A stretch of 64,000 nucleotides of DNA from a virus, in the IMG/VR virus record IMGVR_UViG_3300026680_000001, positions 7,089 to 71,088 of that record; one strand, written 5' to 3'. Under the pieces are notes generated by a model. It saw nothing but the letters and a program-made list of their open reading frames with translations, ran no database searches and had not been told where the DNA came from. Shown in pieces: positions 18,239-61,930 of the stretch. The position numbers and the translations under genes were made by a program. Positions within the stretch are counted from its first letter, which is position 1, and every line of letters starts with the position of its first letter.

Positions 18239-18988
18239 GTGAGCCGTCGTCACATGGTGGTCCTGTTAGCGGTCGCGTCAGGACTGGCCGGCGAGATCCT
18301 CGCAGCCACATCCATGACCCGGATCGCGGGGCCGGTGGACGTGGCCGGGGGCCGACTCGGGTTCCCCGGCGGCGCCGATGGCCTGGACCTTCGATGGACC
18401 CTGTTCGCGGTGGTGTCGATCGCGGGATGGGCCGGGGCCGTGCTCTGGACCAGCAACCGAGCGCGGGACCGTAAGTGGGGCGCCCCGATCAATGTTGGTG
18501 CCGGTGTCTTGGCCGGGATCGCCATCGGCCTGGACCATGTGGTCCACGCGGACCCGGCCCTGGCCTGGCGACTGGTCGCGTTCTTCGTCGGGCTGGCCGT
18601 CCCGCTGTTTTCCTCCCTCATGATCCACACCATTGCCCATGTAGCGTCCGCGGACACCAAGTTGCCCGATCGGCCGAAGAGGCGTGAACGACACCAGCCG
18701 GCCACCCCCGTGCCGCCCCACAACGGTATTCCCATGCCATCCGTGAATGGCACCCCGGTCCCACTACCGGCACCCACACGAGCCATTCGGCCGGTGGCCG
18801 ACGGAACCCAAGACCTGCCAGCGGTCGAGGCCCGGCGAGCGTTCGCCACGCGATGGCTCACGGAACACCTGACCTCCGAGACCCAGCCGAATGATCTCGT
18901 CACCGCAGCGGCGCGGGAAGGCCTGACAATAACCCGTCAGGCCGCCCACAAATGCCTGAAAAGGGCCAGGGACCAGGTTCGCGCATGA
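18239..18988 (+). CDS. integral membrane protein with C-terminal HTH-like segment
   Basis: GTG 18239 with GGGAGGGA RBS; 4-5 hydrophobic helices; C-terminal TAAAREGLTITRQAAHKCLKRARDQV; stop overlaps next start (ATGA). Confidence 0.4.
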   Translation: MSRRHMVVLLAVASGLAGEILAATSMTRIAGPVDVAGGRLGFPGGADGLDLRWTLFAVVSIAGWAGAVLWTSNRARDRKWGAPINVGAGVLAGIAIGLDHVVHADPALAWRLVAFFVGLAVPLFSSLMIHTIAHVASADTKLPDRPKRRERHQPATPVPPHNGIPMPSVNGTPVPLPAPTRAIRPVADGTQDLPAVEARRAFATRWLTEHLTSETQPNDLVTAAAREGLTITRQAAHKCLKRARDQVRA

Positions 18989-20925
18989 CCAATGTGGACG
19001 ACCGACTTCCCGTCATTGTCGAGGATGATGGCGGGACACCTCCTGACCCCATCCCAGATGATGATCGACCATCTCCGGATTCGCCATCACCGAGTGGCAG
19101 GGCCGGTGTCTGGTTGGAGCGGGCCGCCATGTGGCGGTTTCCCACGCCTGCGCGGATGTGGTCGGTATGCCGGTGGTGGATGCTCACCGCGCTGGCCGCC
19201 TCCCCATACATGGCATTACGGCTACCAGTCGCGGCGTGGCGCCATGTACGAGCCATCCTGGTCGGGCTCGGAATGGTTCTCGCCGCATGGGCACGGTGGC
19301 GAATCCGAGAAGACTGGCTCAAGGATGTACAGGCGGCTGACGGTCTCAAGCGCGCCAAGCACCGAGAATACTTCGAGAAGCGTCGTCGAGCCCGGTCACT
19401 GTGGTCGGCGTTCCTGCTCATCGTCGTGTGCGTGGCCATCTTGGCAGCGGTACGGCTCTGGCCCCACTATCTGGCCCTGGTCGTTCTCCTGACGATGATC
19501 GGCCTCGACGCGCTCGGGCATCGCGGGGCTCCGGACCCCGACCTACCTCAGCCACCGTCCTCACCACTTCGCGAGGGTGCTCCGGCACGGGTGATTGTGT
19601 CCCAGGTGCACGACATTCTCACCGGCCGGGGTCACCGGGCGACCGTCGTGGCCCCGGTCGTCGGCCCACATGGTGTCGCGATGGAGGTCCACGACCCAGA
19701 GCGAGCGATTGATGAAGGCGATCTGGACGCCCTGGAACGAGGATTGCAGACCTATCCGGGGGCAGTGTTGCAATCACCGTCCCGGACCAACGCCGCGGTC
19801 ACGGCGCTACGCGTGCACTGGAGTGACCCACTGGCCGAGCACCGCCCACCGCCGGCCAGGGCACCGCTGTCGCGCACCGTGGCCGACCCGGCGGACCTGG
19901 GATATGGCGTTCGCGGGGAAGTGCTGCGACTGGGATTGCTGCGGACCAGTGTCCTGGTCGTGGGTGGTCCGGGGTCAGGCAAGTCCACCACACTGTCCGG
20001 GATGCTGGATTATCTCACCGCGTGCGGTGACGTGGTCGTCGACGCGATCGACCTGTCCGGTGGGGCCACATTCGGGCCCTGGCGGGCTTGCCTGCGTAGC
20101 GTGTCCACCGACCGGGACGAGGCTGAGGAAGTCCTGCGGGACGCGGTGGCGCTGGCCAAACGCCGGACCCGGCAGCTGGAACACCATGACAGTTGGTCTC
20201 CCGGGGATGGTCCGTGCCGGGTCCTGTTCATCGACGAGTTCCCGCTGCTGGCCATGGACGAGACATTGCTCGCGCTGTACGGCGAGCACCTACAGATCGG
20301 GCGCAAGGCCGGGTCCACCTCCGTCGTCGGGGTCACGGACCTGACCAAGGAGACGATGGGTGCCACTCGGATGCGCAAGTACCCGAGTAGCTACATTCTG
20401 CATGCCTGCTCCCGTGAGGACGTGGTGATCGCGCTCGGGGGCGGGATGGTGGCCGCCGGCTGGGCTCCGCACCGACTCGTCCCCGAGCAGGGCGATGAGG
20501 TCATGGACGCGGGTAAGGCATACGTCTGGTCCGGCCGGTACAGGGCCCCCGAGCCGTGGCGGTTCTGGAAGGTCTCCAAGGACGAGGCACGGCGCCGTGC
20601 CGGAGAGCGGGCACGTGCCGGCACACCCCAGCTGGACGAGGACGACGTGATCGACGCTGTGGTGGTGCCGGCGGACCTGGAGATCTTCCGAACCGCGTTC
20701 GCCGACGCGGGCTGGCCGGAGTTCATGGCCACCGACGACATCATCGAACATCGGCGATCGACCAACGGCGACACTCCGACGCGAGAGAACCTGTCTGAGA
20801 TCGCGGCTCGGTACGGATTCGCCCCCGCCGCCTCTCGTCGCCGGCCAGTCGGGGGCGGGAATCCCCGGCGCGGGTACCTCGCTGCGGATGTGCGGCGGGC
20901 ACTGTCTGAGCTTGAGGCAGAATGA
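18985..20925 (+). CDS. FtsK/SpoIIIE-family DNA translocase (TraB-like)
   Basis: N-terminal TM segments, Walker A VVGGPGSGKST, Walker B VLFIDEF; about 646 aa. Confidence 0.7.
   Translation: MTNVDDRLPVIVEDDGGTPPDPIPDDDRPSPDSPSPSGRAGVWLERAAMWRFPTPARMWSVCRWWMLTALAASPYMALRLPVAAWRHVRAILVGLGMVLAAWARWRIREDWLKDVQAADGLKRAKHREYFEKRRRARSLWSAFLLIVVCVAILAAVRLWPHYLALVVLLTMIGLDALGHRGAPDPDLPQPPSSPLREGAPARVIVSQVHDILTGRGHRATVVAPVVGPHGVAMEVHDPERAIDEGDLDALERGLQTYPGAVLQSPSRTNAAVTALRVHWSDPLAEHRPPPARAPLSRTVADPADLGYGVRGEVLRLGLLRTSVLVVGGPGSGKSTTLSGMLDYLTACGDVVVDAIDLSGGATFGPWRACLRSVSTDRDEAEEVLRDAVALAKRRTRQLEHHDSWSPGDGPCRVLFIDEFPLLAMDETLLALYGEHLQIGRKAGSTSVVGVTDLTKETMGATRMRKYPSSYILHACSREDVVIALGGGMVAAGWAPHRLVPEQGDEVMDAGKAYVWSGRYRAPEPWRFWKVSKDEARRRAGERARAGTPQLDEDDVIDAVVVPADLEIFRTAFADAGWPEFMATDDIIEHRRSTNGDTPTRENLSEIAARYGFAPAASRRRPVGGGNPRRGYLAADVRRALSELEAE
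20872..20916. repeat. copy 1 of a 44-bp imperfect direct repeat (3' end of FtsK-like gene); copy 2 at 21695-21737
   Basis: GGGTACCTCGCTGCGGATGTGCGGCGGGCACTGTCTGAGCTTGA vs GGGTACCTCGCTACGGATGTGCGGGACGCACTGTCTAGGCTCGA; both encode GYLA(A/T)DVR(R/D)ALS(E/R)L. Confidence 0.7.
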
Positions 20926-21344: not shown

Positions 21345-21779
21345 ATGATGTTTCAGGGTCGGGTTCACACTACGGGTAGCGACGACATATTCGACGACGA
21401 GGCATTTAGCGGCCAGATCGGCAAAAATGTCCCACTCACCGTCGGTGGGCAACACGTTGGCTACGTCACGATCGTTGCAGCCGAGGTTGTGGACGGTGGC
21501 CGGGCAGTGCTACTGACCTACACAGCCCCCGGCACTGACCGGTGCGGGAGTCAACCGTCCTCGAATTCCAGTGCCCGTTGTGAGCGGCCGAGTGGCCACA
21601 CATCCAATAACTGTGTCGGCCGGACCCGTGGAGGCTACTGGAAGTCGTGGACGACGCCAGACCCCTCCCTGAACGATGGTGGCACGACCCCCACGGGTAC
21701 CTCGCTACGGATGTGCGGGACGCACTGTCTAGGCTCGACCAACGGGAGTAGTGGCTGGTTATGCGAGATAGCGAGATAG
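21345..21779 (+). CDS. hypothetical protein; 3' half looks degenerate (possible pseudogene/frameshift remnant)
   Basis: N-terminal 65 aa protein-like; remainder Ser/Arg/Gly-rich low-complexity; alternative frame carries duplicated FtsK C-terminus. Confidence 0.2.
   Translation: MMFQGRVHTTGSDDIFDDEAFSGQIGKNVPLTVGGQHVGYVTIVAAEVVDGGRAVLLTYTAPGTDRCGSQPSSNSSARCERPSGHTSNNCVGRTRGGYWKSWTTPDPSLNDGGTTPTGTSLRMCGTHCLGSTNGSSGWLCEIAR
21695..21737. repeat. copy 2 of FtsK 3'-end repeat, in an otherwise non-coding-looking frame
   Basis: See copy 1; lies about 780 bp downstream. Confidence 0.7.
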
Positions 21780-24429: not shown

Positions 24430-24479
24430 CCCGGCCCCCGCGAGGGGACGCGACGTTGGGGATCAGATCCCCGGCCGGG
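24430..24479 (+). repeat. structured element copy 1 (closing stem CCCGGC/GCCGGG; hairpin CCCC-GCGA-GGGG; linker ACGCGACGTT; hairpin GGGGA-TCAGA-TCCCC)
   Basis: Begins 9 nt after stop of 23903 gene; one of three paralogous copies with compensatory changes. Confidence 0.6.
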
Positions 24480-24748
24480 TACGCGGAGAGAGTGAGGAAC
24501 GGGGTACGACCGGGCCGCGGGAGGGTCTGGATCGTCTCGCGCAGGGGGGACTGCCCCCGGACCACCCCCGATAAACCCCGACCATTACTGGATAGGATCA
24601 ACAGGACATAGCTAACTATTTTTTCGTGATGACGGTACAAGGTCCAGTCCACAGTGTGCCGGGTGCACGTTGGACCAGTACAGTATCCGGGACAGTTCAA
24701 GCAACGGGCCATACCCGCACCTCGGTATACAACAATATACTTGGCCAG

Positions 24749-24916: not shown

Positions 24917-25495
24917 ATGAGCACGTCAACGTACTTGACTGTCGAGATGTTAACCAAGGCAAGCGCCTGCGCCAACCAAGTGAGCCGCTTCCACCAGAAA
25001 TACCCGGCGGGTGTCGACATCACTATTGACCTATGCCGTGACAGTTCCGCGGACTGGGACTGGGACTGGGCAGCAAAACAACTACTGCCGCAGTCCGCGT
25101 GGGCTGGATACGAGCGGGTCAAGCAGCCGGCTTGGGCCGAGTACGCGCGGGTCGAGCAGTCGGCTTGGGCCGAGTACGCGCGGGTCCGGCAGCCCTCGCG
25201 AGCCAAGTACGAACGGGTCTGGCGGTCCGCGCGGGCCGAGTACGCGCGGGTCGAGCAGTCGGCTTGGGCCGAGTACGCGCGGGCCGAGTACGCGCGGGCC
25301 GAGTACGAGCAGGCCCGGCAGTCTGCGTCGGCCGAGTATGAGCGGGTCTGGCAGCCCGCGCGGGCCGAGTACGAGCGGGTCCGGCAGTCCGCGCGGGCCG
25401 AGTACGAGCGGGTCCGGCAGTCCGCGCGGGCCGAGTACGAGCAAGCATGTGCCGTAGCGTTCGCAAATGCTGTCTTGGCGTATGGCCTACGCTGA
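24917..25495 (+). CDS. tandem-repeat protein (11-aa AEYARV(E/R)QSAW repeats)
   Basis: 192 aa; GGAG RBS 9 nt upstream; about 10 copies of an 11-residue helical repeat. Confidence 0.5.
   Translation: MSTSTYLTVEMLTKASACANQVSRFHQKYPAGVDITIDLCRDSSADWDWDWAAKQLLPQSAWAGYERVKQPAWAEYARVEQSAWAEYARVRQPSRAKYERVWRSARAEYARVEQSAWAEYARAEYARAEYEQARQSASAEYERVWQPARAEYERVRQSARAEYERVRQSARAEYEQACAVAFANAVLAYGLR
25094..25446. repeat. 33-bp tandem repeat array (about 10 units of GCTTGGGCCGAGTACGCGCGGGTCGAGCAGTCG), coding
   Basis: Visible periodicity of 33 bp with unit variants including truncated 24-bp units. Confidence 0.85.
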
Positions 25496-25505
25496 CCGAC
25501 GCCTG

Positions 25506-25556
25506 CCTGGTCCCCCCGCAAGGGATGTGACGTTGGGGGTCGAATCCCCGGCCGGG
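25506..25556 (+). repeat. structured element copy 2 (CCTGGT/GCCGGG closing stem with G-U pairs; CCC-GCAA-GGG; linker TGTGACGTT; GGGGG-TCGAA-TCCCC)
   Basis: Begins 11 nt after stop of repeat-protein gene. Confidence 0.6.
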
Positions 25557-25591
25557 TACTTCAACAACAAGAATCAACGATTGGAACCACG

Positions 25592-26873: not shown

Positions 26874-26921
26874 GCCCGGTCCCGTGAGGGACGTGACGTT
26901 GGGGACCGAATCCTCGACCGG
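26874..26921 (+). repeat. structured element copy 3 (CCCGGT/ACCGGG closing stem; CCC-GTGA-GGG; linker CGTGACGTT; GGGGA-CCGAA-TCCTC)
   Basis: Begins 8 nt after stop of DUF932-like gene. Confidence 0.6.
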
Positions 26922-26964
26922 GCACTTCCAACGAAATGACCATTACTTGAGTGGAGCCAGACCT

Positions 26965-38917: not shown

Positions 38918-39546
38918 GCTGTCAACTCCTCTGTTCTCCACTCGATATCAGTGTTGCGTGGGTCATCGCCGAGGCCCCCGAGCCCGGCCGCCCACCGTAC
39001 GGCCTCACCGGCTAGCTGACGGTACCGGGGACTGTCATACAACGGGTTCCGCCCGCTCGGGTGCGGGATGGCGCAGAACCGGCCACGGCGCTCGAACCAG
39101 TCGAGGTCAGTCAGGCCAAAGCTGGCCCGGACGTGCGCGCCGAGCAGTAGCATACGGGTCTCCGGGCCAACCTCGACTATCAGCTCGCCCCGCCGCCGCT
39201 GCGCCTCCACTTCTGACCACCCACCCTTGGTCTGGAGAAGGTTCACCCGTCTCAGCCTCGCCAGATACTGCTCGATCGAAAGCTCCGACATGGTATGGAG
39301 ACGCGCGCCTGCGGAACCGCTCGGGTATGGGAACAAGGTGCAGGTCTCCCACCCGGCACTGCCTGGCATCTCCCCGACGATTACTCCAACGGCCGGTACG
39401 TCAGGCAGTTCACCGACACGGGCCAGCCACGCGAGAACCCGCTCTCGTGAGTTCAACGTGACTCGTCCACGCTCGTCAACAGTTGTGATCAGCAATCGAT
39501 TTCCAGTCTCACTGGTCACTGTCACGATCAGGGCTGGCCAGTTCAT
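38914..39546 (-). CDS. uracil-DNA glycosylase superfamily protein (family 4/5-like)
   Basis: GEMPGSAGWETCTLFPYPSGSAGARL (GE-x-PG...F-x-G-x-AG) and C-terminal AIPHPSGRN (HPS) motifs. Confidence 0.55.
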   Translation of the reverse strand: MNWPALIVTVTSETGNRLLITTVDERGRVTLNSRERVLAWLARVGELPDVPAVGVIVGEMPGSAGWETCTLFPYPSGSAGARLHTMSELSIEQYLARLRRVNLLQTKGGWSEVEAQRRRGELIVEVGPETRMLLLGAHVRASFGLTDLDWFERRGRFCAIPHPSGRNPLYDSPRYRQLAGEAVRWAAGLGGLGDDPRNTDIEWRTEELTA

Positions 39547-40832
39547 CGGTCCTCATCACTCTCAGCTATCCATTCCCACCGACATATAAATGAGTCCCGA
39601 ACCTGCTCGGTAAGAACACCATGTTGCTCTGCGACATCCCAGAGAACGGCGAGTTCTTCGACATAGCCGGCAACCTTGATACCCGCCAAAATGGTACCTT
39701 CGGTGACCTGTTCCAGCACAGTCCCACCCGTATCACCGATAATGTCTGTCGGCGTCGCACTATCATGGGTCGGCCACGGCTCTACCTCATTCCCCCGGCC
39801 CATAAGGGCGTTCTTCACGTCCTCAGTGAGCAGTCCATGCCGATCCGCGATGTCCCAGAGCGTAGCTAGCTCTTCAACGCTCTGTGCGGCTATCACATCC
39901 TTGATAATGCCGTCTGTGGTGGCCACACAGTCATCCCATGGCACCTCCTCATCGTCAGGACCACCCGCACCAGCCGCCAGCGACGCACCATCATGGGTCG
40001 GCCACGGTTCCACCAGCCCGCCCGCTTTGGCCACCCGTCGCATCTCCCGGACTTCGCTGGCCTTCTCGGCGGCGATGCGACCACCCACCAGGTTGAGTTT
40101 GTGCACCTCACCATGACCGCTGCCGGCTGGTACGTGAATCACGGCACCGACCTCCTGGTCGAACTCAGGCATCGGCTGGAACTCGCCCGTCCGCCAGTCC
40201 CAAACGTGGGTCGCGCTGGCATACAAGTAGATCTGGACCGCGATCTCCAGCCAGTTGTAGTCCAGGTTCTGACCCGACTTGAAGTCGCCCACGACGAGTC
40301 CGGGGCGGTGCGCGGTCCACAATCCCCGATCTAGTCGGCCGACCACCCCGTAGTCCAGGTTGAGCACACACACCTCGACCATGCCATCTGCCACGGCCAG
40401 CCCATGGCGTTCCAGGGCCTCGTAATAGGCGGCCACGTCACTGGCCAGGATGTGCGGGACGTGTACATCCTGGCCGAGGTCACGATATTCCAGGATCTTA
40501 TGCAGGGCACTGCCCAGCTCTGCCCCGGCAAAGGCCCCGGCAGACTCCTTCGCGGCCTCAGCGATGGCCTGGATCTCGTCCCGGTTGTCATTGCGGGCCA
40601 GTGCGGCTACGGCCTTCGCCCTCAGCTCGTTCTGGGTGGCCATCCCTTCGACGACCTTCCGCTGTCGCCACTGGTCGAGCGCGTACGAGTCCGCCAGTAT
40701 CTTCGCGAAGTTGGTCACGCGCTGCCATGTCCGTATCCGGCCCGTATTCGGGTCGGGGACCACGTACCGTCCACCCCGGATCTCCGGGCCGTCGTGACCG
40801 CTGGACGGAGTACTGAAAGGATCACCGCTCAT
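39543..40832 (-). CDS. PD-(D/E)XK-family nuclease (Cas4/RecB-like) with duplicated C-terminal about 60-aa module
   Basis: GRLDRG...LVVGDFKSGQ motif; two C-terminal repeats VEPWPTHD...ELAxLWDxAxxHGxLTExV; N-terminus MSGDPFSTPSSGHDG identical to next gene. Confidence 0.5.
   Translation of the reverse strand: MSGDPFSTPSSGHDGPEIRGGRYVVPDPNTGRIRTWQRVTNFAKILADSYALDQWRQRKVVEGMATQNELRAKAVAALARNDNRDEIQAIAEAAKESAGAFAGAELGSALHKILEYRDLGQDVHVPHILASDVAAYYEALERHGLAVADGMVEVCVLNLDYGVVGRLDRGLWTAHRPGLVVGDFKSGQNLDYNWLEIAVQIYLYASATHVWDWRTGEFQPMPEFDQEVGAVIHVPAGSGHGEVHKLNLVGGRIAAEKASEVREMRRVAKAGGLVEPWPTHDGASLAAGAGGPDDEEVPWDDCVATTDGIIKDVIAAQSVEELATLWDIADRHGLLTEDVKNALMGRGNEVEPWPTHDSATPTDIIGDTGGTVLEQVTEGTILAGIKVAGYVEELAVLWDVAEQHGVLTEQVRDSFICRWEWIAESDEDR
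40789..40832. repeat. copy 1 of exact 44-bp direct repeat at the 5' ends of two adjacent leftward genes; copy 2 at 41438-41481
   Basis: GCCGTCGTGACCGCTGGACGGAGTACTGAAAGGATCACCGCTCA identical at both sites; encodes (M/V)SGDPFSTPSSGHDG on minus strand. Confidence 0.85.
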
Positions 40833-41488
40833 GGTTGCCTCACCTCCGGCAACGGTGTGTACGTCGCCACATCAGACAGCGTTTTAGCATCCAGGCCAGC
40901 AGCGGCAAACTCTTGTACTGCACTGGTCAGTAACGTGAAACCCCGACTTGGAGTGAGTATGGACAGACCTTCATCACGGGTATCGATTCCATTCTCCCGC
41001 GCCGCAAGGAACTCAACAGCGCAACCTGCACTGTATTGCCATCCGTCAGCGAACACGACGGTTTGGACAAACTGTTCGATGATAGCCGTCCAGAACTGGT
41101 GATAGTCTGACTGATCCCAGCCATCGATACCAACGAACAGTGTTGGATCGATGACGGGGCCGGTGACCTGCCGACGTACCCGCGCAATGACATCTCGCGC
41201 ATTGTCCAAATTCACCCTGACAACGTTCTCCTGGTGAGCACCCTGGTATTCGGGGTGTGATTCTTCCAGTTGCGGGTTTTGTCGTCTCCACGACAAGTAT
41301 GACCGTCCAGTGGTGATTGGCACACTGACGTAGGTAACGTCACGATCAGTAATGCCGCAGCACCGTATCATAGACAGTAACGTGTCTTGAACTTGGCCAC
41401 CCATTAACTCATCCTCCTGAACCCGCGAACCGGTCGAGCCGTCGTGACCGCTGGACGGAGTACTGAAAGGATCACCGCTCACCACCAC
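40829..41488 (-). CDS. DUF4406 (nucleoside 2-deoxyribosyltransferase-like) protein
   Basis: YVSVPITTG, VIDPTLF, ADGWQYSAGCAVEFLAARENGIDT resemble the DUF4406 family; GTG start; N-terminus SGDPFSTPSSGHDG shared with upstream nuclease. Confidence 0.5.
   Translation of the reverse strand: MVVSGDPFSTPSSGHDGSTGSRVQEDELMGGQVQDTLLSMIRCCGITDRDVTYVSVPITTGRSYLSWRRQNPQLEESHPEYQGAHQENVVRVNLDNARDVIARVRRQVTGPVIDPTLFVGIDGWDQSDYHQFWTAIIEQFVQTVVFADGWQYSAGCAVEFLAARENGIDTRDEGLSILTPSRGFTLLTSAVQEFAAAGLDAKTLSDVATYTPLPEVRQP
41438..41481. repeat. copy 2 of exact 44-bp direct repeat
   Basis: See copy 1. Confidence 0.85.
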
Positions 41489-41817
41489 ACCTCCGGTGGT
41501 TTAGCAGCCTCGACCTGTTCCACAGAAGCGGCCGCTATGCGCAGTTTACTCTCGGTCACAGATCTGGTAGCCACCATGTCAAGCGCCTCTGCGGCGCTCG
41601 ACTCGACCATGGGGCCACGATGACGAACAAGCTCTGGCCATTGCTCCATCACCGGAATCGACCAGTCAGCGTGGTCTACGGATACGTGTACCCATTTATC
41701 GCAAGTTCTGGAAACGACCCACGGCTCGCCGTCCCGGTCCAGCACAACTTCCACACCGTCATCAGCCGGTATGCCGGCATCATTCTTCCACCAACATCTC
41801 CGAGTCACGCCCCTCAT
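41479..41817 (-). CDS. hypothetical protein
   Basis: 112-aa ORF. Confidence 0.35.
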   Translation of the reverse strand: MRGVTRRCWWKNDAGIPADDGVEVVLDRDGEPWVVSRTCDKWVHVSVDHADWSIPVMEQWPELVRHRGPMVESSAAEALDMVATRSVTESKLRIAAASVEQVEAAKPPEVWW

Positions 41818-43445
41818 CTCCCATCCACAAACCGGTCGAGCCGTCGTGACACCAGCTCGGTACTGATCATGTCACTGATCTCTCCCTGACGACGGTCACC
41901 AGGATCGATCCCAAGGGCCTGCGCGAACGCAAGCTGACGTGGCTTCGGCCTGGCCCGTCGCCAGCTCGACGACCGTGAGCTGTACGTGCCGTTCTCACGG
42001 GCGTACCCATCGGCCCAGGCCATGGCGTAGCCGACGGTGGTGCCATGGTGGAGCCGCTGCGCCACACCTGGCCCCGCCCCCAGCGAGACCCGGCCGACAG
42101 TGAACACCGCGTCACCGCTACCGTCAGTCTCCGGCCAGATGAAGAAGGCATCATCGGCGCTCGGGATAAACCAAACACCACCATGAGTTCGTAGCCAGGT
42201 CGACGACGACTGGTCCAGGACCTGGAATGCCTCCGAACCCAGCTCACCGGCCAGTGCTACCGGCTCGAATCCGGAGTCCGGGTCACGAACCTTACCCACC
42301 CGGCGGATTGACTCCATGAGGCTCTCGCCATCGCCGGTATGGTCCAGCCCCGGGGCCAGGTCCGCCATCGTGGCGACCTGGTGTCGCCGCGACACCCCGG
42401 TCAGGTCGATCACGATAGCCTCGACCTTGCCAGGGTGTGGTCGCAGCACTCGCCCGACAATCTGGGCGTAAGTGCCGCTGAACAGCACAGGCCGAGCAAC
42501 GATCACCACTGTGGCCGCCGGCTCATCGAATCCCTCGGCCAGGACCATGCAGGTAACCAGGCACCGTGTCTTCCCGGTCCGGAACCGCGCGTAGAGCCGT
42601 TGCCGCTCGTCCAACGGCGTGTCCCCGACAATCACACCCACGGGCACGCCGGCTTGCTCCATGGACTCGGCCCATGCCCGCGCCGTGGCCACCGTTGGCG
42701 TGAACATGATCGCGGGTTGGTCGTCGCTGTGTCTCCGGTACGCCCGCGCGGCGGCCTCCCCAGCGCCGGCCGCGTGCATCGCCTCACCGAGCGGGCCGTC
42801 CCGGAACTCCCCGCCAGATGTGGGGCAGCGTCCCAAGTCCAGGCCGTCCACGGTGACCCGGTGCCCACGCGCGTCGACGAGCCAGCCAGGTGGGATGAAG
42901 TACGGGATGTCACGGTGGTAGGCGACGCCGTCCCAAACAGTGTCGAGCCCCCGGCCGTCAGCCCGTGCCAGCGTCGCGGAGAACCCCACGGACCGGGTCC
43001 GGCCGTCCATGACGCCGAAATGGTCCAGGACCGCCACGTACGATTTGGCCGCCGCATGGTGGGCCTCGTCGACGACCACGAGGTTGAACTGGTCTCGGGG
43101 GACACGGTCTCGGCGAGCCTTCCGGGCAAGGGTCTGCACCGAGGCGACAACCACCCGCCGGTCCCAGTCGTCCCGCGCGGCCTTGACCACGCCGATGTCG
43201 TCACTAAGGTCCGGGTTCGCTCCTGCGATCTTCCGGACGGTCTGCCGAAGCAGCTCATCCCGGTGGACCAGCACAAGCGCCCGGCCACGCTGCTCGACCT
43301 CGCGCCGCACGTGCTCGGCGAAGCAGACCGTCTTGCCGGTGCCGGTTGGCAGGCTCACGGCTGGACGGGTCGTTCCCGCCATCCAGTCACGCTCTACGGC
43401 GTCAATGGCCTCTTCCTGGTATGGACGCAAGGGCAGGGCGGTCAC
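41814..43445 (-). CDS. SF2 DEAD/DEAH-box-type DNA helicase
   Basis: RPYQEEAID, Walker A LPTGTGKT, DEAH box VVVDEAHH; GTG 43445 with AGGAG RBS and GTGA overlap with upstream gene. Confidence 0.75.
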   Translation of the reverse strand: MTALPLRPYQEEAIDAVERDWMAGTTRPAVSLPTGTGKTVCFAEHVRREVEQRGRALVLVHRDELLRQTVRKIAGANPDLSDDIGVVKAARDDWDRRVVVASVQTLARKARRDRVPRDQFNLVVVDEAHHAAAKSYVAVLDHFGVMDGRTRSVGFSATLARADGRGLDTVWDGVAYHRDIPYFIPPGWLVDARGHRVTVDGLDLGRCPTSGGEFRDGPLGEAMHAAGAGEAAARAYRRHSDDQPAIMFTPTVATARAWAESMEQAGVPVGVIVGDTPLDERQRLYARFRTGKTRCLVTCMVLAEGFDEPAATVVIVARPVLFSGTYAQIVGRVLRPHPGKVEAIVIDLTGVSRRHQVATMADLAPGLDHTGDGESLMESIRRVGKVRDPDSGFEPVALAGELGSEAFQVLDQSSSTWLRTHGGVWFIPSADDAFFIWPETDGSGDAVFTVGRVSLGAGPGVAQRLHHGTTVGYAMAWADGYARENGTYSSRSSSWRRARPKPRQLAFAQALGIDPGDRRQGEISDMISTELVSRRLDRFVDGR

Positions 43446-43759
43446 GACAGCTCCTGAGCAGTCCGGGGACCTGTTTGGACGGCCTCTGAGGATAAATCTA
43501 TGGCTGCTAGGCCACCGCCACCCATCGCACGGACAAAATCCGCCGTTGCATCGCACACGTCCGCGTTAGTCCAGCCTCGTTGGACTCCAAATGGCAACTG
43601 ACCGTCACGGAGAAGCTGGCGCTTCCCCCAGCTTCTCCCGACAGTGAGACAAAAAATGTCAGCCCAGGACCCGTCACGAGCGACCCTGGTTACCTCGATG
43701 AAGACCCGCACACAGGGTCGCTGATCCGCATGTACCACATAACGATCACCTCGTTTCAT
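43442..43759 (-). CDS. hypothetical protein
   Basis: 105-aa ORF; translationally coupled to helicase. Confidence 0.35.
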   Translation of the reverse strand: MKRGDRYVVHADQRPCVRVFIEVTRVARDGSWADIFCLTVGRSWGKRQLLRDGQLPFGVQRGWTNADVCDATADFVRAMGGGGLAAIDLSSEAVQTGPRTAQELS

Positions 43760-44794: not shown

Positions 44795-47700
44795 ATGCCC
44801 AACACAGCAGAGCCGTCACTGTCCCCTGAACACGCCGAGCTGCTTCGTCATCACGCCGTGGACTTGGGGGTAGCCGCCGCCGCAGGGGTCCGCTCGGTCC
44901 TGACCCGGGAGGACCTTCCCGAGCCACTTCGTGAGATCGGCTGGATAGCCGACCTGGTTCCCGGGATCGTGTACGTGTGGCGTCACCAAGGGATCACCGA
45001 GTACCAGTTCGCCACTGACGACCGGTCAGACGACCGGCCCAAGTACGCCTTTCGGCCCGGGGCCACACCGGTCCCCAACCAGGTCCGTGAGACCGGCGAC
45101 GGTGGACCGGTGCTCCTTGTGGAGGGCACCAAGCAGCAGTTGGCCGCCGCGTCCTGGGTTGACCAATCATGGTCCGTCTACGGGATCGCCGGGTGTTGGA
45201 GCTGGACCACTGCGGACCTGTCGTTCGTGTCCGACCGTAAAGTGGTGGTCATCTACGACGGGGACGTGACCATCAACCGTCACGTCTGGGACGCGGGAGA
45301 GCGGCTCGCCGAGACACTCCACCTCTACGGTGCTGATATGGTCACCTTCGTCAGGGTTCCGACCACGGGGTCCGACGGCCTCGACGACCTGTTGGGCCGG
45401 ATACCACCCACGCAGCGTGGCTCAGCACTCAAGCGGTTGCTCGACAAGGCCGGCAAGTTGCCCAAGCGGCCGCCACGCCGGCCGGCTGAGTCCGGCAACG
45501 CCTACATCGACCCGGCCAACGGCGGGTTCCAGGTCCGGCGACTGGCCGCAGCGGTCTACGAGCGGTGGCCGATGGCCCTGACCCGGGAGCGCCGGCCGGC
45601 GGTGTACCAGCGCGGCACCTACCGGATGGACGGCACGGCGCTGGTCTCGGCGGTGACCCAGCTCATGGGTGAGCAGTACCGGCCAGCACAGCTGTCGGCC
45701 GTGACCGATGTCCTGGTCGGCACCCTGTACGACGAGGGGATCTTTTTACCGGATCATCTCGACAAACCATTGCTGAACTGCCGGAACGGAATGCTGGATC
45801 TGGAAACCGGAACGCTCTACCCACACGCGCCCAGCTATCTGTCCAGTCTCCAGATCCCCCTTTGCTGGACTCCTGATGCCGAGGCGCCCGTCTACAACGA
45901 ATGGCTGGACCAGGTCCTCGGGGACCAGGCCGAGGATCTGGAAGAAGTCACGGCGTCAATGTTGGACCCGTCCCGAACACCGTCCAAGGCAGTGTTTTTG
46001 TTCGGTCCGTCGAAGTCTGGTAAGTCAACGTACCTACGCCTGATGCGGGCTGTTGCCGGCTCGGCCAATGTCTCGGCTGTGGGACTTCACCAACTGGTCG
46101 TCAACCGGTTCATGGCCGCGATGGTGTACGGCATGATGCTGAACGCCCACGCCGACCTGTCCGCCGCGCATGTCGAGGATGTGTCACTGTTCAAGATGAT
46201 GATCGGTGATGACCTCATCCCAGCCGATCGAAAGTACGGCGGCACGTTCAACTTCGTCAACCAGGCCCTCTTTGCGTTCTCCGCCAATGACCCACCCACG
46301 GTCGGAGAATCCTCGCGGGCCTACGCCGAACGCATCAAGCCGTTCAAGTTCCCGTTCTCGTTCGCCGGTCGGGAGGACCCCACGATCGAGGACCACATCA
46401 TGGCCCATGAACTGGAGGGGGTCCTGGTGCGCTGGGTGGCCGCCTGGCAGCGCCGCCAGCAACGGGGCAGCTGGCACCCCACGGCGCCCGAGGTCCAGCA
46501 CGAGTTCGAGGTGCGCTCGGACCGGGTGCGCCAATGGGTTGACGAGGAAATGATCGTATGGCCGGTCAACGGGACCTACCAGAACCGGGACGAGTGCACC
46601 GTCCCCAGGGACCTGGCCCGTGCGTTCAACCGGTGGGCCGAGGACAACGCCGGCAGCAAGATGGGCGAACGGAAGATCATCGATCGGCTTCGGACCATGC
46701 CCGACGTGGCTGAGGTCCGGCAGCGAGAGACACGGGCGAGGGCACTCAACCTCACCAAGCGACCCCCCGGTGAGAGCGGGGGCAGTTTGCTCGGGCAAAC
46801 TGCCCCCCGATCCGAGCAAACTGCCCACGAATCAGGCCAGGTCACGCCGGATGGGGCAGAAGGGGCAGTTTCGGCCCACCCTACCTATACACTATGTAAA
46901 AAACATGGCCCGGAAGGTCAGGTATTAGAACAAGTAGAAAATACAGAGACCATAGGTAGGGGTGGGCCGAAACTGCCCCTTCTGCCCACGCCCGATCCCG
47001 GCGAACCCGTTAACGATGTTGAAACTGCCCCCGGCCAACGTGTTGATGATGTTGAACCTGCTGCCTCCGCCGACCAACATGACGATCTTGGTCCCGCCCT
47101 GATCGGCCCTGAGTTCACCGCACCCGTTGGGTCAGTCCTTGACTTCGACCTTGAGACCTACGATGCTGGAGACATCTGGCACAGAGGACCAGACTTTGTG
47201 TTCGCCGCCGGCTATCGGGGATCTCAAGATCCCGAGGCACTCCTTACCACTGACATCGATGCCCTGACCCACCAGCTCGCCGCTCCCGGAACGACCGTTC
47301 GTGGACATAACGTCCTGAACTTTGATCTCGTCGCCCTCGCCAGGTATCACGGCCTCGATCAACTTTCGTTGACTTGGCGTGGTGGGGTGGTCGACACCAA
47401 GCTCTTGGCGTTCCTCGCGGACCCACCACCTGCTCGAATGGGATCGGGCGAGTGCGAGAAGCACTACAAGCTCGATGCTGTTGGGCAGCGACTGTTCGGG
47501 GTCGGCAAGCAGGGCACCTTCGCTGACTTGCTTGCCAAGCATAACGGTGACCGGCTGTCACTCCGCCACGACCCTGAATTCGTCGAATATCTCCGGCAGG
47601 ACGTTGCGCTCACGGGTCGGCTTGCGCGGCACTTTGGTACATGGCCATATGCTGAGCGAGAGCATCGAGTGCTTGCTGTGCTATCCCAGATGAGTTTGAA

Positions 47701-48877
47701 TGGATTCCGGGTCGATACCGGACTGCTCAATCAAAGGTATGCCGAGGGTGAGGCGACCAAGGCGCGACTTCAGGAACGACTCGTCACCGAGTATGGGATG
47801 CCAACCGACACCGCGGCCGGGAAACCGGCAAAGTCACCATGGACCACCGCGAAGGGTAAGGCCGCGATCAGCGCCGCGTTCCAGGCCGCGGGTGGACCTC
47901 CGTTGCCGATAAGTCCTAAGGGAAACACCCTTACGAGCAAAACCGTGATGGAAGCACTCGTCGTGCGGTACGAGGATGAGGTACCCGAGGTCGCTCAGCT
48001 CGCTCGGGTCGTGATGGAGTTGCAGGGTGTGCGGTCAATTTATGGAACGGTGTTGGACCATCTCGTGGGTGACCGGGTTCACCCGAAGTTCGACGCCCGT
48101 CAGGCGTCCGGGCGTATCTCCACCATCAACCCCGGCCTGACCGTGATCGGCAAACGGGACGGCCGGGTCCGTGAACGGGAAATTTTCTTACCCGAAGAGG
48201 GTCACGTGATCATCACCGCTGACCTGGCCCAGTGTGACGCGCGTGTCGTGGCGGCACTCTCCCAGGACCACGCGTACATGGACCTGTTCGAGCCTGACGG
48301 GTCCGGGCTCGACCTGTGGTCCCGGTTCGCACTGCGGTTGTTCGGGACCGTGGACAAGCGGGAGTGGGCCAAGTGGATCGGGCACGGGTCCAACTACGGC
48401 CAGGGCGCCGCAGCCATCTCCACAACGTACGGGGTTCCCCGTGACGAGGTGGATCGGTACCTGGCTGAGCGGGCCGAGCAGTTCCCGCGGCTCGCGCGGT
48501 GGACCAACGAGGTCCGGGAACGGGCACGCGCCGGGGACCTGTTGGACAACGGGTGGGGTCGGCTGATGCGCCCCGACCCGCATCGCTACTACACGCAGGG
48601 GCCGGCCCTGATGGGTCAGGGCGGTACCCGTGACGTGATGGCGGAGGGCATGCTTCGGCTCGTGACCGCCGTACCCGAGGTGGCCCCGTTGCTGCGGGCA
48701 ACCGTTCACGACGAGCTGGTCCTATCCGTCCCCGTGGACTGGGCCGACGATGTGGAACGGGTGCTGGTCGAGTGCATGTCGTTCGAGTGGTGCCCACCAG
48801 GCGGCAGCCGACCTATCAAGATCATGGCAGACGTGGGCCAGCGTGGTCAGACCTGGGCGGGGGCATACGCGAAATGA
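44795..48877 (+). CDS. fused replicase: TOPRIM primase-like N-terminus, SF3/D5-like helicase P-loop, family A DNA polymerase C-terminus
   Basis: VLLVEGTKQQ + VIYDGD (TOPRIM E and DxD); Walker A FLFGPSKSGKST; PolA-like motifs IITADLAQCDARV, YGQGAAAIS, VHDELVL; 1360 aa. Confidence 0.8.
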   Translation: MPNTAEPSLSPEHAELLRHHAVDLGVAAAAGVRSVLTREDLPEPLREIGWIADLVPGIVYVWRHQGITEYQFATDDRSDDRPKYAFRPGATPVPNQVRETGDGGPVLLVEGTKQQLAAASWVDQSWSVYGIAGCWSWTTADLSFVSDRKVVVIYDGDVTINRHVWDAGERLAETLHLYGADMVTFVRVPTTGSDGLDDLLGRIPPTQRGSALKRLLDKAGKLPKRPPRRPAESGNAYIDPANGGFQVRRLAAAVYERWPMALTRERRPAVYQRGTYRMDGTALVSAVTQLMGEQYRPAQLSAVTDVLVGTLYDEGIFLPDHLDKPLLNCRNGMLDLETGTLYPHAPSYLSSLQIPLCWTPDAEAPVYNEWLDQVLGDQAEDLEEVTASMLDPSRTPSKAVFLFGPSKSGKSTYLRLMRAVAGSANVSAVGLHQLVVNRFMAAMVYGMMLNAHADLSAAHVEDVSLFKMMIGDDLIPADRKYGGTFNFVNQALFAFSANDPPTVGESSRAYAERIKPFKFPFSFAGREDPTIEDHIMAHELEGVLVRWVAAWQRRQQRGSWHPTAPEVQHEFEVRSDRVRQWVDEEMIVWPVNGTYQNRDECTVPRDLARAFNRWAEDNAGSKMGERKIIDRLRTMPDVAEVRQRETRARALNLTKRPPGESGGSLLGQTAPRSEQTAHESGQVTPDGAEGAVSAHPTYTLCKKHGPEGQVLEQVENTETIGRGGPKLPLLPTPDPGEPVNDVETAPGQRVDDVEPAASADQHDDLGPALIGPEFTAPVGSVLDFDLETYDAGDIWHRGPDFVFAAGYRGSQDPEALLTTDIDALTHQLAAPGTTVRGHNVLNFDLVALARYHGLDQLSLTWRGGVVDTKLLAFLADPPPARMGSGECEKHYKLDAVGQRLFGVGKQGTFADLLAKHNGDRLSLRHDPEFVEYLRQDVALTGRLARHFGTWPYAEREHRVLAVLSQMSLNGFRVDTGLLNQRYAEGEATKARLQERLVTEYGMPTDTAAGKPAKSPWTTAKGKAAISAAFQAAGGPPLPISPKGNTLTSKTVMEALVVRYEDEVPEVAQLARVVMELQGVRSIYGTVLDHLVGDRVHPKFDARQASGRISTINPGLTVIGKRDGRVREREIFLPEEGHVIITADLAQCDARVVAALSQDHAYMDLFEPDGSGLDLWSRFALRLFGTVDKREWAKWIGHGSNYGQGAAAISTTYGVPRDEVDRYLAERAEQFPRLARWTNEVRERARAGDLLDNGWGRLMRPDPHRYYTQGPALMGQGGTRDVMAEGMLRLVTAVPEVAPLLRATVHDELVLSVPVDWADDVERVLVECMSFEWCPPGGSRPIKIMADVGQRGQTWAGAYAK
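46777..47032. other. putative origin of replication embedded in replicase ORF: six copies of GGGCAGTTT/AAACTGCCC, a 12-bp-arm palindrome, and an about 36-bp near-perfect inverted repeat flanking a 62-bp AT-rich spacer
   Basis: Palindrome 46777-46806; inverted-repeat arms 46854-46889 and 46952-46987; AT-rich core 46890-46951; falls in a low-complexity inter-domain linker of the protein. Confidence 0.5.
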
Positions 48878-60319: not shown

Positions 60320-61930
60320 ATGAGTAGCCTCGTCCGGTACCCGGTACCGCAAGCGCCCACGGTTCGATGGCCGCAGTCGCGGATCATCGCCCCGCCGCAG
60401 GTTCCCGGTGGTTCCACCATCGCGGTGTTTCAATCGAGCTGGGCCACCACCACCACCCCCAAAACGGTGGTCGTCCCAGGGTGTCTCATCGGGGATCACT
60501 TGCTTGTCCTCGGTGGTGGGGACATGTCCACCGGGAACACCGTTGCCAGCGTTACCACCACGACCTCAGCCGGACCGGGCACCACTGGCTCCTGGACCGA
60601 ACCCGCCGAGGTCCTCACCGGTACCACCGATGACTGGCTGACCAGCGCTATCGCCACTGTCACCGGGGATGGGGACATCACCGTTCAGATGGCCCGCACC
60701 GTCGGCACCGGGGCACCCGGCGAGTGGGGTTTCTGGGTGCTCCGGGCCCGTGACAGTGCCGGGTTCGGTGCCCCGGTCACTCAGCTCACCAGTGGCTCCG
60801 GCCAGGTTGTGTCCGTCACCACCACAGCGGACTCCGTGGTGGCGTACCTGTCGGTGGACTGGGATGCCGCGTCTGTCGGTACCTTCACGCCTGGTGGTGC
60901 GGTGGAGGTGGAACGCGCGGCCATTGGTGGGGTGTACACAGTCCATGCCGCCTACTGGCCTTCCCAGGCCGCGGGCACCCGCGACTATGGGCATACCGGT
61001 GGTGGCGGTACCAAGTACCGCATCGTCGCAGTCGAGGTTCTCGGCCCATCCAGCGGAGTCAGCGGTGCCGGCAACATCGCACAGCGCAGTAGCACTGCGA
61101 GTGCCGCTACCAAATCGGTGGCCGGGGCCGGTACCGCACAGGCACGAACGACTTCGACCGTAACCGCCAGTAAGGCGGCTACCGGTGCCGCAATCACGAT
61201 GGGGCGGGTCAATACAGCCGCCGTGGGGCGCAAACTGTCCGCCAGCCTTGCCGGTCCAGCTCAACGTATGTCGACAAGCACCATTGCCGCCAAACAGGCT
61301 GCCGGGACGGCCACATCGGTCACCCATGTCATCACGAGGGCGGGATTCACCTCACCGGGGCCCAGCGGCGCCACGTCGGTTCCTCAACACGCCGTTACCG
61401 GCGCCGTGGGTCTCAAGCGGGTAGCCACACCGGCCAGTGCCTCAACACGTCCCAGCGTCGTGGCCAGCGGCCGCAAACAGGTCTCAGCGGGAGCACTGGC
61501 CGTCCAGCACATCACAACCAGAGCAACGTTCACACCCGCCGGTCCAGTGGGTACCACGGCAATCGTTCAGCGCTCCATTGTCGTCGCCGTTGGTGCCAAA
61601 CGGATCGTCGCGCTAACCGGTGCCGTGACGCATACGTACACCATGACGGGTGGCCGCAAGCAGGCCATGGTAACCGGCCCCGTAACCGGGCACAGTGTCA
61701 CTGCCACGACCGGGGCCAAGCTGACCGCAGGCGGAACTAGTGTGGCCCAGCGTACGGTGACCGTCGCCTCGATGTTCGTTGTTTCCCCATACGTACCGGC
61801 CCTCGTAGGTGTGGATGCCAATGGGTCGGTCGGTGGTGTGGACGCCAGTGGGTCGGTCGGTGGTGTGGGTGCCAACGGGTCGGTCGGTGGTGTGGACGCC
61901 GATGCCACCGTGGCGGGTAACTTGGGGTGA
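60320..61930 (+). CDS. fibre-like protein, paralog family member 4, with C-terminal Gly-rich 9-aa tandem repeats
   Basis: 536 aa; GDHLLVLGGG...W pattern; three 27-bp repeats encoding (A/D)NGSVGGVD at 61807-61890. Confidence 0.45.
   Translation: MSSLVRYPVPQAPTVRWPQSRIIAPPQVPGGSTIAVFQSSWATTTTPKTVVVPGCLIGDHLLVLGGGDMSTGNTVASVTTTTSAGPGTTGSWTEPAEVLTGTTDDWLTSAIATVTGDGDITVQMARTVGTGAPGEWGFWVLRARDSAGFGAPVTQLTSGSGQVVSVTTTADSVVAYLSVDWDAASVGTFTPGGAVEVERAAIGGVYTVHAAYWPSQAAGTRDYGHTGGGGTKYRIVAVEVLGPSSGVSGAGNIAQRSSTASAATKSVAGAGTAQARTTSTVTASKAATGAAITMGRVNTAAVGRKLSASLAGPAQRMSTSTIAAKQAAGTATSVTHVITRAGFTSPGPSGATSVPQHAVTGAVGLKRVATPASASTRPSVVASGRKQVSAGALAVQHITTRATFTPAGPVGTTAIVQRSIVVAVGAKRIVALTGAVTHTYTMTGGRKQAMVTGPVTGHSVTATTGAKLTAGGTSVAQRTVTVASMFVVSPYVPALVGVDANGSVGGVDASGSVGGVGANGSVGGVDADATVAGNLG

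Follow-up and report, generated by a model that had tools for sequence, protein, structure and literature searches.

Recombination that is illegitimate, homeologous or directed by boundary sequences has been put forward as a source of phage mosaicism (PMC2327257, PMC3029335). In the lambdoid phages, short conserved boundary (linker) sequences have been proposed to serve module exchange (refs 21 and 22 of PMC3029335). The closest described counterpart of the locus analysed here is found in mycobacteriophage Island3, where genes 67 and 68 have approximately 50-60 bp in common at their 3' ends, together with 18 C-terminal residues, and where Brujita carries a single recombinant copy at the corresponding locus (PMC3029335). 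This duplication was attributed by its authors to recombination between sequences of roughly 50 bp, by which a gene is added or removed (PMC3029335).

Here, we describe a duplication at the starts of two adjacent genes in a 64-kb window (the whole stretch of viral DNA that was analysed, 64,000 nucleotides). Like Island3 gp67/gp68 (Cluster I), the locus consists of adjacent genes, one of them an inserted orphan, with a short sequence common to their equivalent ends. In Island3, however, the 3' ends are shared and Brujita provides a sister genome, whereas here the 5' ends are shared, including the ribosome-binding site, and there is no sister genome. A further difference from Island3 is that the second partner site can be recognised in the same genome, from a piece of helicase tail and an 11-nt microhomology. 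The joint resembles illegitimate or microhomology-mediated recombination in its position at gene borders, its 11 nt of identity and the intact state of all genes in the product, although most illegitimate joints described so far have no duplicated sequence, and at this one 44 nt are duplicated and a piece of a gene has been left out of frame. As with the lambdoid boundary sequences, short identities flank an exchangeable gene and could support homologous exchange or deletion; the lambdoid sequences, however, occur in many genomes and at several module borders, while the present ones occur at one locus in one genome, and inside coding sequence. We propose that the identical gene starts are most probably a mosaic-junction scar, left when the genomes of two related phages were joined by a single unequal (illegitimate) crossover.

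An exact repeat at the starts of two adjacent genes

The repeat lies in the replication module, a tight minus-strand operon with 4-nt stop/start overlaps between its genes (Table 1). The operon runs from small ORFs through the SF2 helicase gene, g112, a 217-219-aa accessory ORF and the exonuclease gene to two further ORFs, with no promoters between the genes and no convincing terminators. A primase-polymerase gene (44795-48877) is divergent from the operon.

The exonuclease gene and the 219-aa gene share an exact direct repeat, identical at 44/44 nt. The initial annotation had reported such a repeat at the starts of these two genes, and we confirm it as far above chance, with no matches in 100 shuffles of the sequence even when 3 mismatches were allowed. 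One copy was placed correctly, at 41438-41481; the other belongs at 40788-40831, one base away from where it had been put. Each copy comprises the last 2 nt (TG) of the start codon and codons 2-15 of its gene, the start codon being ATG for the exonuclease and GTG for the 219-aa gene. The TGA stop of the upstream gene falls inside each copy, giving overlaps of ATGA and GTGA. Extended without gaps, the repeat reaches 47 nt with one mismatch (40785/41435), and with a 3-nt gap the similarity runs upstream to the Shine-Dalgarno (SD) site CCGGAGGTG (65 columns, score 90 vs 15.6 +/- 2.4 for shuffles). There are no synonymous differences between the copies and no further copies in the window (2 matches in 64 kb at <=3 mismatches). 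The remainder of the two genes is dissimilar, as had been noted before; BLASTP finds only the 15 repeat-encoded residues in common between the two proteins. Elsewhere in the window there is a second, older boundary duplication (20871-20915 and 21694-21738).

Both genes had been given family names. That of PD-(D/E)XK nuclease for the exonuclease is below the threshold in Pfam (PDDEXK_1, E = 0.007), but the protein strongly matches PHROG exonuclease 466 (3e-61), and its residues D168, D183 and K185, forming the D...D/E-x-K motif, are invariant among homologues. The name DUF4406 for the accessory protein fared less well, since the 219-aa protein reaches only 13.8 bits against Pfam PF14359 (E = 0.08), where the gathering cut-off is 22 bits; weak DUF4406 matches are found in 11 of the 13 members of its family (best E 0.008). 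The fold of the accessory protein is predicted to be nucleoside-deoxyribosyltransferase/TIR-like, and its AlphaFold model is confident overall (pLDDT 87). GC3 is lowest in the accessory gene (0.55), followed by g112 (0.61), the exonuclease gene (0.71) and the helicase gene (0.79).

Table 1. Features of the helicase-exonuclease interval, with positions in the 64-kb window.
Feature	Position	Strand	Details
SF2 DNA helicase gene, 543 aa	41814..43445	-	
Resident helicase gene 3' end, VSRRLDRFVDGR-stop	41813..41850	-	homologous to the remnant at 41408-41448
g112, 112-aa accessory ORF between the helicase gene and the duplicated start	41479..41817	-	no family match
Shine-Dalgarno site CCGGAGGTG before GTG 41482, identical to that of the exonuclease	41488..41496	-	anti-SD duplex -13.4 kcal/mol
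Repeat copy 2 (duplicate)	41438..41481	-	last 2 nt of GTG, same 14 codons as copy 1, TGA of g112
11-nt microhomology GTCACGACGGC	41438..41448	-	also exact at 40788-40798 and 41840-41850
Remnant of helicase gene 3' end	41408..41448	-	helicase frame SRRLDRFAGSGG-stop, TGA at 41409-41411
Probable native ATG of the accessory gene (M29 of the 219-aa ORF; 191-aa product)	41402..41404	-	SD duplex -12.4 kcal/mol
Accessory gene, DUF4406-like protein	40829..41482 (ORF to 41488)	-	217 aa from GTG, 191 aa from ATG 41404
Shine-Dalgarno site CCGGAGGTG of the exonuclease start	40841..40849	-	anti-SD duplex -15.4 kcal/mol
Repeat copy 1 (original)	40788..40831	-	last 2 nt of exonuclease ATG, codons 2-15 SGDPFSTPSSGHDG, TGA of the 219-aa gene
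PD-(D/E)XK / Cas4-family exonuclease gene, 429 aa	39543..40832	-	

A helicase remnant and an 11-nt microhomology

The sequence adjoining the upstream repeat copy is a remnant of a helicase gene 3' end, lying out of frame within the accessory ORF. This helicase-derived sequence is a third element of the locus, which the initial annotation had overlooked. Aligned with gaps to the resident helicase 3' end, through the stop codon, the remnant gives 41 columns and a score of 44 (vs 15.8 +/- 2.2 for shuffles). In the accessory-gene frame it is translated as GHDGSTGSRVQEDEL; in the helicase frame it gives SRRLDRFAGSGG-stop, the C-terminal motif of the helicase family. In 86/119 helicase homologues, the last 30 residues include the pattern S[RK]x[LFIM]D, whose median distance to the C-terminus is 5 residues. 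Within the 3' end of the resident helicase gene there is also a partial third copy of the repeat (41825-41850) in another reading frame, with 21 nt exact and 24/26 identical overall. These three-way sequence relationships, and the reading frames involved, can be read directly from the genome.

The three sites have in common an exact 11-mer, GTCACGACGGC. At 41438-41448, the bases flanking this 11-mer are exonuclease-like on the 5' side and helicase-like on the 3' side, and because they switch from exonuclease to helicase across it, the crossover would be confined to these 11 nt. The helicase tail and the exonuclease 5' end have no similarity beyond 14 nt. Since the two genes share nothing further, homology would not have been the driver of the crossover. 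With 8 matches in the window vs 4.8 expected, the 11-mer shows no enrichment there.

Proposed origin by unequal crossover

The arrangement would be explained by a join between two parents in which the conserved helicase and exonuclease genes enclosed different accessory genes. Parent A would have had the order helicase - g112 - exonuclease, and parent B the order helicase' - DUF4406-like gene - exonuclease. In parent B, the helicase stop would have read ...GGAGGATGA, with the accessory gene directly after it; the full-length helicase tail would read ...GAGCTGGTGTCACGACGGCTCGACCGGTTCGCGG.... Parent A, just past exonuclease codon 15, would have been joined to parent B, 37 nt before the helicase stop, with the join inside the microhomology that exonuclease codons 12-15 of A share with the helicase tail of B. 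The product would have received the helicase gene, g112 and the exonuclease SD site, start and first 14 codons from A, and a 41-nt helicase tail, the accessory gene with its own SD and ATG, and then a complete exonuclease gene from B. An SD inside the remnant is what one would expect of an accessory gene that formerly followed a helicase gene directly; the last codons of the remnant do hold the SD AGGAGG (41413-41418), 8 nt upstream of ATG 41404.

Such a crossover would account for the order of the genes and their two ribosome-binding sites, for the duplicated 44 nt and the helicase remnant that lies out of frame, and for the one mismatch that directly follows the 11-mer. As in a boundary-duplication scar, the repeat is found at equivalent ends of adjacent unrelated genes, and the junction has a second identifiable site and a crossover interval (41408-41448, 11 nt). 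One observation goes against the model in its simple form; the 9-nt SD identity is set apart from the 44-mer by a diverged stretch of 6-9 nt, which would need the parents to have been different there already. The scar appears to be recent. Of the four interpretations first offered for the repeat, recombination with module shuffling was essentially right, although the repeat resembles what an earlier event would leave behind rather than a dedicated hotspot.

The single-copy or parental arrangement was not found in phage records, IMG/VR, JGI metagenome contigs, GTDB genomes or a collection of 5.8 billion proteins. Megablast of the region 39500-43600 against 50,697 phage records returned nothing, and neither did tblastn with the 219-aa protein; with the exonuclease, tblastn returned relatives at <=35% identity only. 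Protein-guided scans of IMG/VR, together with a 23-mer scan, gave no match. In the large protein collection, the accessory protein had no match above 55% besides the query, the exonuclease none above 40% and the helicase none above 48%. The sole other contig with the locus, L006, which carries the exonuclease and was considered as a possible variant, is 100% identical. As no relative with the single-copy arrangement was found, we infer both parents, and which way the event went, from this one genome.

In Corynebacterium phage EmiRose, the helicase and exonuclease genes are adjacent. In L017 and L018, three different, unrelated small genes lie between them, and among Micromonospora prophages the gene upstream of the exonuclease varies. 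Together with the lower GC3 of the accessory gene and g112, this supports the helicase-exonuclease interval being a variable slot between two core genes. A gene of ~460 aa adjoins accessory-protein homologues in bacterial contigs; it was considered as an exonuclease partner and rejected, being unrelated to the exonuclease.

The same junction topology could have a different history, in which the segment bounded by the helicase 3' end and the exonuclease 5' end underwent an intragenomic tandem duplication (in one genome or a concatemer), and another gene subsequently took the place of one of the two internal copies. An exonuclease 5' end joined to a helicase 3' end is the head-to-tail signature of such a duplication. 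We nevertheless consider this origin unlikely. The two internal genes, g112 and the 219-aa gene, are without similarity, and the helicase tails differ at 2/26 nt and diverge beyond that, while the two exonuclease pieces match exactly. The extra replacement event that is needed also makes this history less parsimonious than a two-parent cross.

The shared N-terminus belongs to the exonuclease family

Which of the two families owns the repeat-encoded peptide can be seen directly from their homologues. The relatives of the exonuclease are all distant (<=40% identity) and come mostly from Micromonospora prophages and actinophages. Six of the 11 full-length homologues (34-40% identity) start with M-x(1,2)-D-[PL]-F-D-[TA]-P; variants of this motif occur in P0026, L017 (MTEPFD) and L018 (DDLFDS), and it is missing in three homologues. 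The conserved catalytic core begins at residue 20. Because the motif is found in distant exonuclease homologues, we regard MSGDPFSTP as the native N-terminus of the exonuclease family, and its retention over such distances suggests some role in its native protein. As in a boundary-duplication scar, the segment has its home in one family, that of the exonuclease, and is alien to the other, that of the 219-aa protein; the peptide was found in 0/12 homologues of the 219-aa protein, and the alignment with the closest of these (P0002, 55%) begins at the internal M29 of the 219-aa ORF.

This bears on the proposal of the initial annotation that the shared residues are a tag, a degron or an interaction peptide. 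Stated more fully, the 15 residues would be an N-terminal peptide under selection, acting as a signal for targeting or packaging, as a degron, or as a short linear motif by which both enzymes are brought to the same partner. In each gene the residues are in frame and preceded by a strong ribosome-binding site, distant exonucleases keep the D-P-F motif at their N-termini, and the peptide is predicted to be disordered, as is usual for such motifs. Unrelated phage proteins can indeed share N-terminal targeting peptides, such as capsid-targeting sequences. In such tags, the peptide is conserved across relatives and occurs in several dispersed genes, with synonymous divergence. None of these properties is seen here. 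The peptide is absent from the homologues of one of its two bearers and from three exonuclease homologues, and no set of several proteins conserves it at the peptide level rather than the DNA level; its two copies are 100% identical DNA, lie next to each other and are the only ones in the 64 kb, with no other ORF of the window encoding it. The rest of the extension on the accessory protein is a helicase tail read out of frame. It had also been proposed to look for the tag on unrelated proteins elsewhere, and a codon-degenerate 43-nt pattern of the peptide gave no match in three public collections (JGI metagenome, GTDB genome and IMG/VR). A selected shared peptide therefore seems decidedly improbable.

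Two candidate starts for the accessory gene

Two candidate starts are directly visible in the accessory gene. The JGI annotation of the identical contig gives a 191-aa product from ATG 41404. The upstream candidate, GTG 41482, is served by the duplicated exonuclease SD (GGAGGTG; duplex energy in Table 1) and overlaps the g112 stop. As the duplicated exonuclease start is in frame with the accessory gene, a second initiation site would have been gained, and its use would lengthen the accessory protein by 26 residues (27 with the GTG start codon included). Residues 1-6 and 8-17 of this extension have an AlphaFold pLDDT < 50 and are predicted to be disordered, with the fold beginning at around residue 23. 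The native start is probably ATG 41404, and the long ORF with its 'shared tag' an artefact of history. From the sequence features, an in-frame open fusion with a strong SD and a GTG coupled to the upstream stop is probably translated as well, so the peptide may have a functional effect. Which start is in use, we can only infer.

A shared translational control element had been among the first suggestions, and this holds in a trivial sense, as the exonuclease SD and start have been duplicated, but there is no special RNA structure (z about 0). More specifically, the repeat could be a cis-acting element (for translational control, an RNA structure or a Cluster K-type start-associated motif) kept at both starts. 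SD, start codon and first codons together form a complete translation initiation region, and the genes belong to a minus-strand operon with overlapping stops and starts. However, other overlapping starts in the operon lack the repeat, it folds with unremarkable energies (z between -0.2 and +0.9) and it has no Rfam match. Start-associated motifs recur at many genes, and this repeat has two copies only in the 64-kb window, even with <=3 mismatches allowed. We regard such an element as very improbable.

Direct repeats that flank a single low-GC accessory gene might also suggest a mobile cassette, with the 650-bp unit as the element and the 44-47-bp repeats as a target-site duplication or attL/attR cores. 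This is extremely unlikely: the unit has no terminal inverted repeats, there is no transposase or integrase in or adjoining it, usual target duplications are far shorter than 44 bp, and the helicase-tail remnant inside the unit fits a crossover and not transposition. Although the sequence is metagenomic, with no isolates, there is next to no likelihood that the locus is an assembly artefact (a chimeric contig of two strain variants), because the 11-nt junction is too short for a de Bruijn assembler to create, lying below any assembler k-mer and hence presumably present in the reads; in addition, the 44-nt repeat is shorter than typical reads, and 7,553 bp with both repeat copies are 100% identical in JGI 3300001017 and the 71-kb ENA MEGAHIT contig, for which the same source reads are possible.

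Implications

Scars of this kind are already known in phages (Island3 gp67/68), and this one adds no new mechanism. It does carry a warning for annotation, as the long accessory ORF with a 'shared tag' is probably historical in origin.

Direct repeats of 44 bp are long enough for recombinase-mediated precise deletion in phages. Precise loss of the 650-bp unit between the repeats is a plausible prediction, and such instability would leave a join running from ...CCGGAGGTGTGGTGGTGAGCGG...GACGGC directly to CCCGGAGATCC. There is also a slim chance that the acidic D-P-F peptide is a short linear motif of the exonuclease family (for example, one docking a replication or recombination partner) that was transplanted, with the initiation region, onto the unrelated nucleoside-deoxyribosyltransferase/TIR-like enzyme. 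If true, the transplanted motif would recruit the accessory enzyme to the exonuclease's partner, and the locus would show motif shuffling between phage proteins that occurred naturally and very recently.

Read as the scar of an unequal crossover, the locus would be an unusually legible footprint of an accessory gene slotting between core phage replication genes, with both partner sites and the 11-nt crossover interval readable from a single genome.

Repeats and junctions elsewhere in the window

The 44-bp repeat at the starts of the exonuclease and accessory genes has a possible counterpart elsewhere in the window, a 45-nt boundary-type duplication. Its first copy encodes the C-terminus of a 657-aa ORF (18952-20925), GYLAADVRRALSELEAE-stop. 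The second copy lies 823 bp further downstream, in a short frame that lacks an obvious start and translates as GYLATDVRDALSRLDQRE-stop. Shortly after each copy lies a ATGCGAGAT (MRD) gene start. The duplication has the appearance of an older scar comparable to the 44-bp repeat, with its copies on either side of inserted small ORFs.

Ahead of the accessory gene's native ATG is a 2-codon mini-ORF (M-S-stop; ATGAGTTAATG), whose ATG is homologous to the start of g112, the small ORF following the resident helicase gene, at the helicase/g112 junction. This homology hints that the gene order of parent B, the putative ancestor carrying a helicase gene, the accessory gene and the exonuclease gene, itself arose by replacement just past a g112-like start.

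The start codon region of the helicase gene (GCGGTCACGACAGCTC) contains an inverted match to the junction motif, which spans the microhomology where the exonuclease and helicase pieces meet. This region could pair with the 44-bp repeat in the polycistronic mRNA; the match is probably a coincidence, as by rough estimate about 0.1-0.3 equally good matches are expected by chance per 4.5 kb.

The C-terminal extension of the exonuclease contains an internal duplication: it has two ~75-residue repeats (VEPWPTHD...EELA.LWD.A..HG.LTE) at a place where homologues have a single copy. Three copies of a ~48-nt repeat include a hairpin, GGGGAT/C..(loop)..ATCCCC; ARAGORN found no tRNA and Rfam no family in this repeat, which may represent a terminator or regulatory stem-loop family. 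Three in-frame tandem arrays are presumably repeats inside structural or tail proteins.

Repeats, junction features and bacterial cluster loci (window coordinates unless a contig is named)
Feature	Position	Strand	Details
Internal duplication, exonuclease gene	39752-39786 and 39980-40014	-	
~48-nt repeat	24438-24485, 25515-25562, 26881-26928		three copies; 75-83% identity to reference copy
In-frame tandem array	25059-25475		period 33 nt, 8 copies
In-frame tandem array	4518-4787		period 135 nt, 2-3 copies
In-frame tandem array	61803-61900		period 27 nt, 3 copies
Boundary-type duplication	20871-20915 and 21694-21738	+	45 nt, 84% identity
Mini-ORF	41404-41412		between remnant helicase stop and native ATG
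Inverted match to junction motif	43438-43453 vs 41436-41451 and 40788-40801	+	16 nt, 15/16; strand is that of 43438-43453
Bacterial cluster	L002 6001-8136 and 8157-9401		
Bacterial cluster	L014 4405-8039		
Bacterial cluster	L015/L016 4550-8053		
Bacterial cluster	L001 1464-3307		

Bacterial homologues of the accessory protein

On bacterial contigs, proteins with 37-55% identity to the 219-aa NDT/TIR-like protein are encoded in a gene cluster that recurs. There, the ~190-240-aa homologue accompanies a 414-467-aa membrane protein, whose gene is placed divergently or convergently, and a ~420-466-aa partner that lacks annotation and matches nothing in Pfam or PADLOC. In L002-L004 and L015/L016, a PycTM-like effector domain was recognised in the membrane protein (PADLOC E = 1e-8 to 1e-9); no PycTM match is on record for that of L014, and L001 has a peptidase in its place. 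Further defence-type genes (SLFN/AlbA_2 and a DUF4011 helicase) lie in the L002 neighbourhood. The cluster may represent an undescribed defence-like operon. Its NDT/TIR-like component is the only one present in the phage, where it could serve as a counter-defence or nucleotide-modifying gene.
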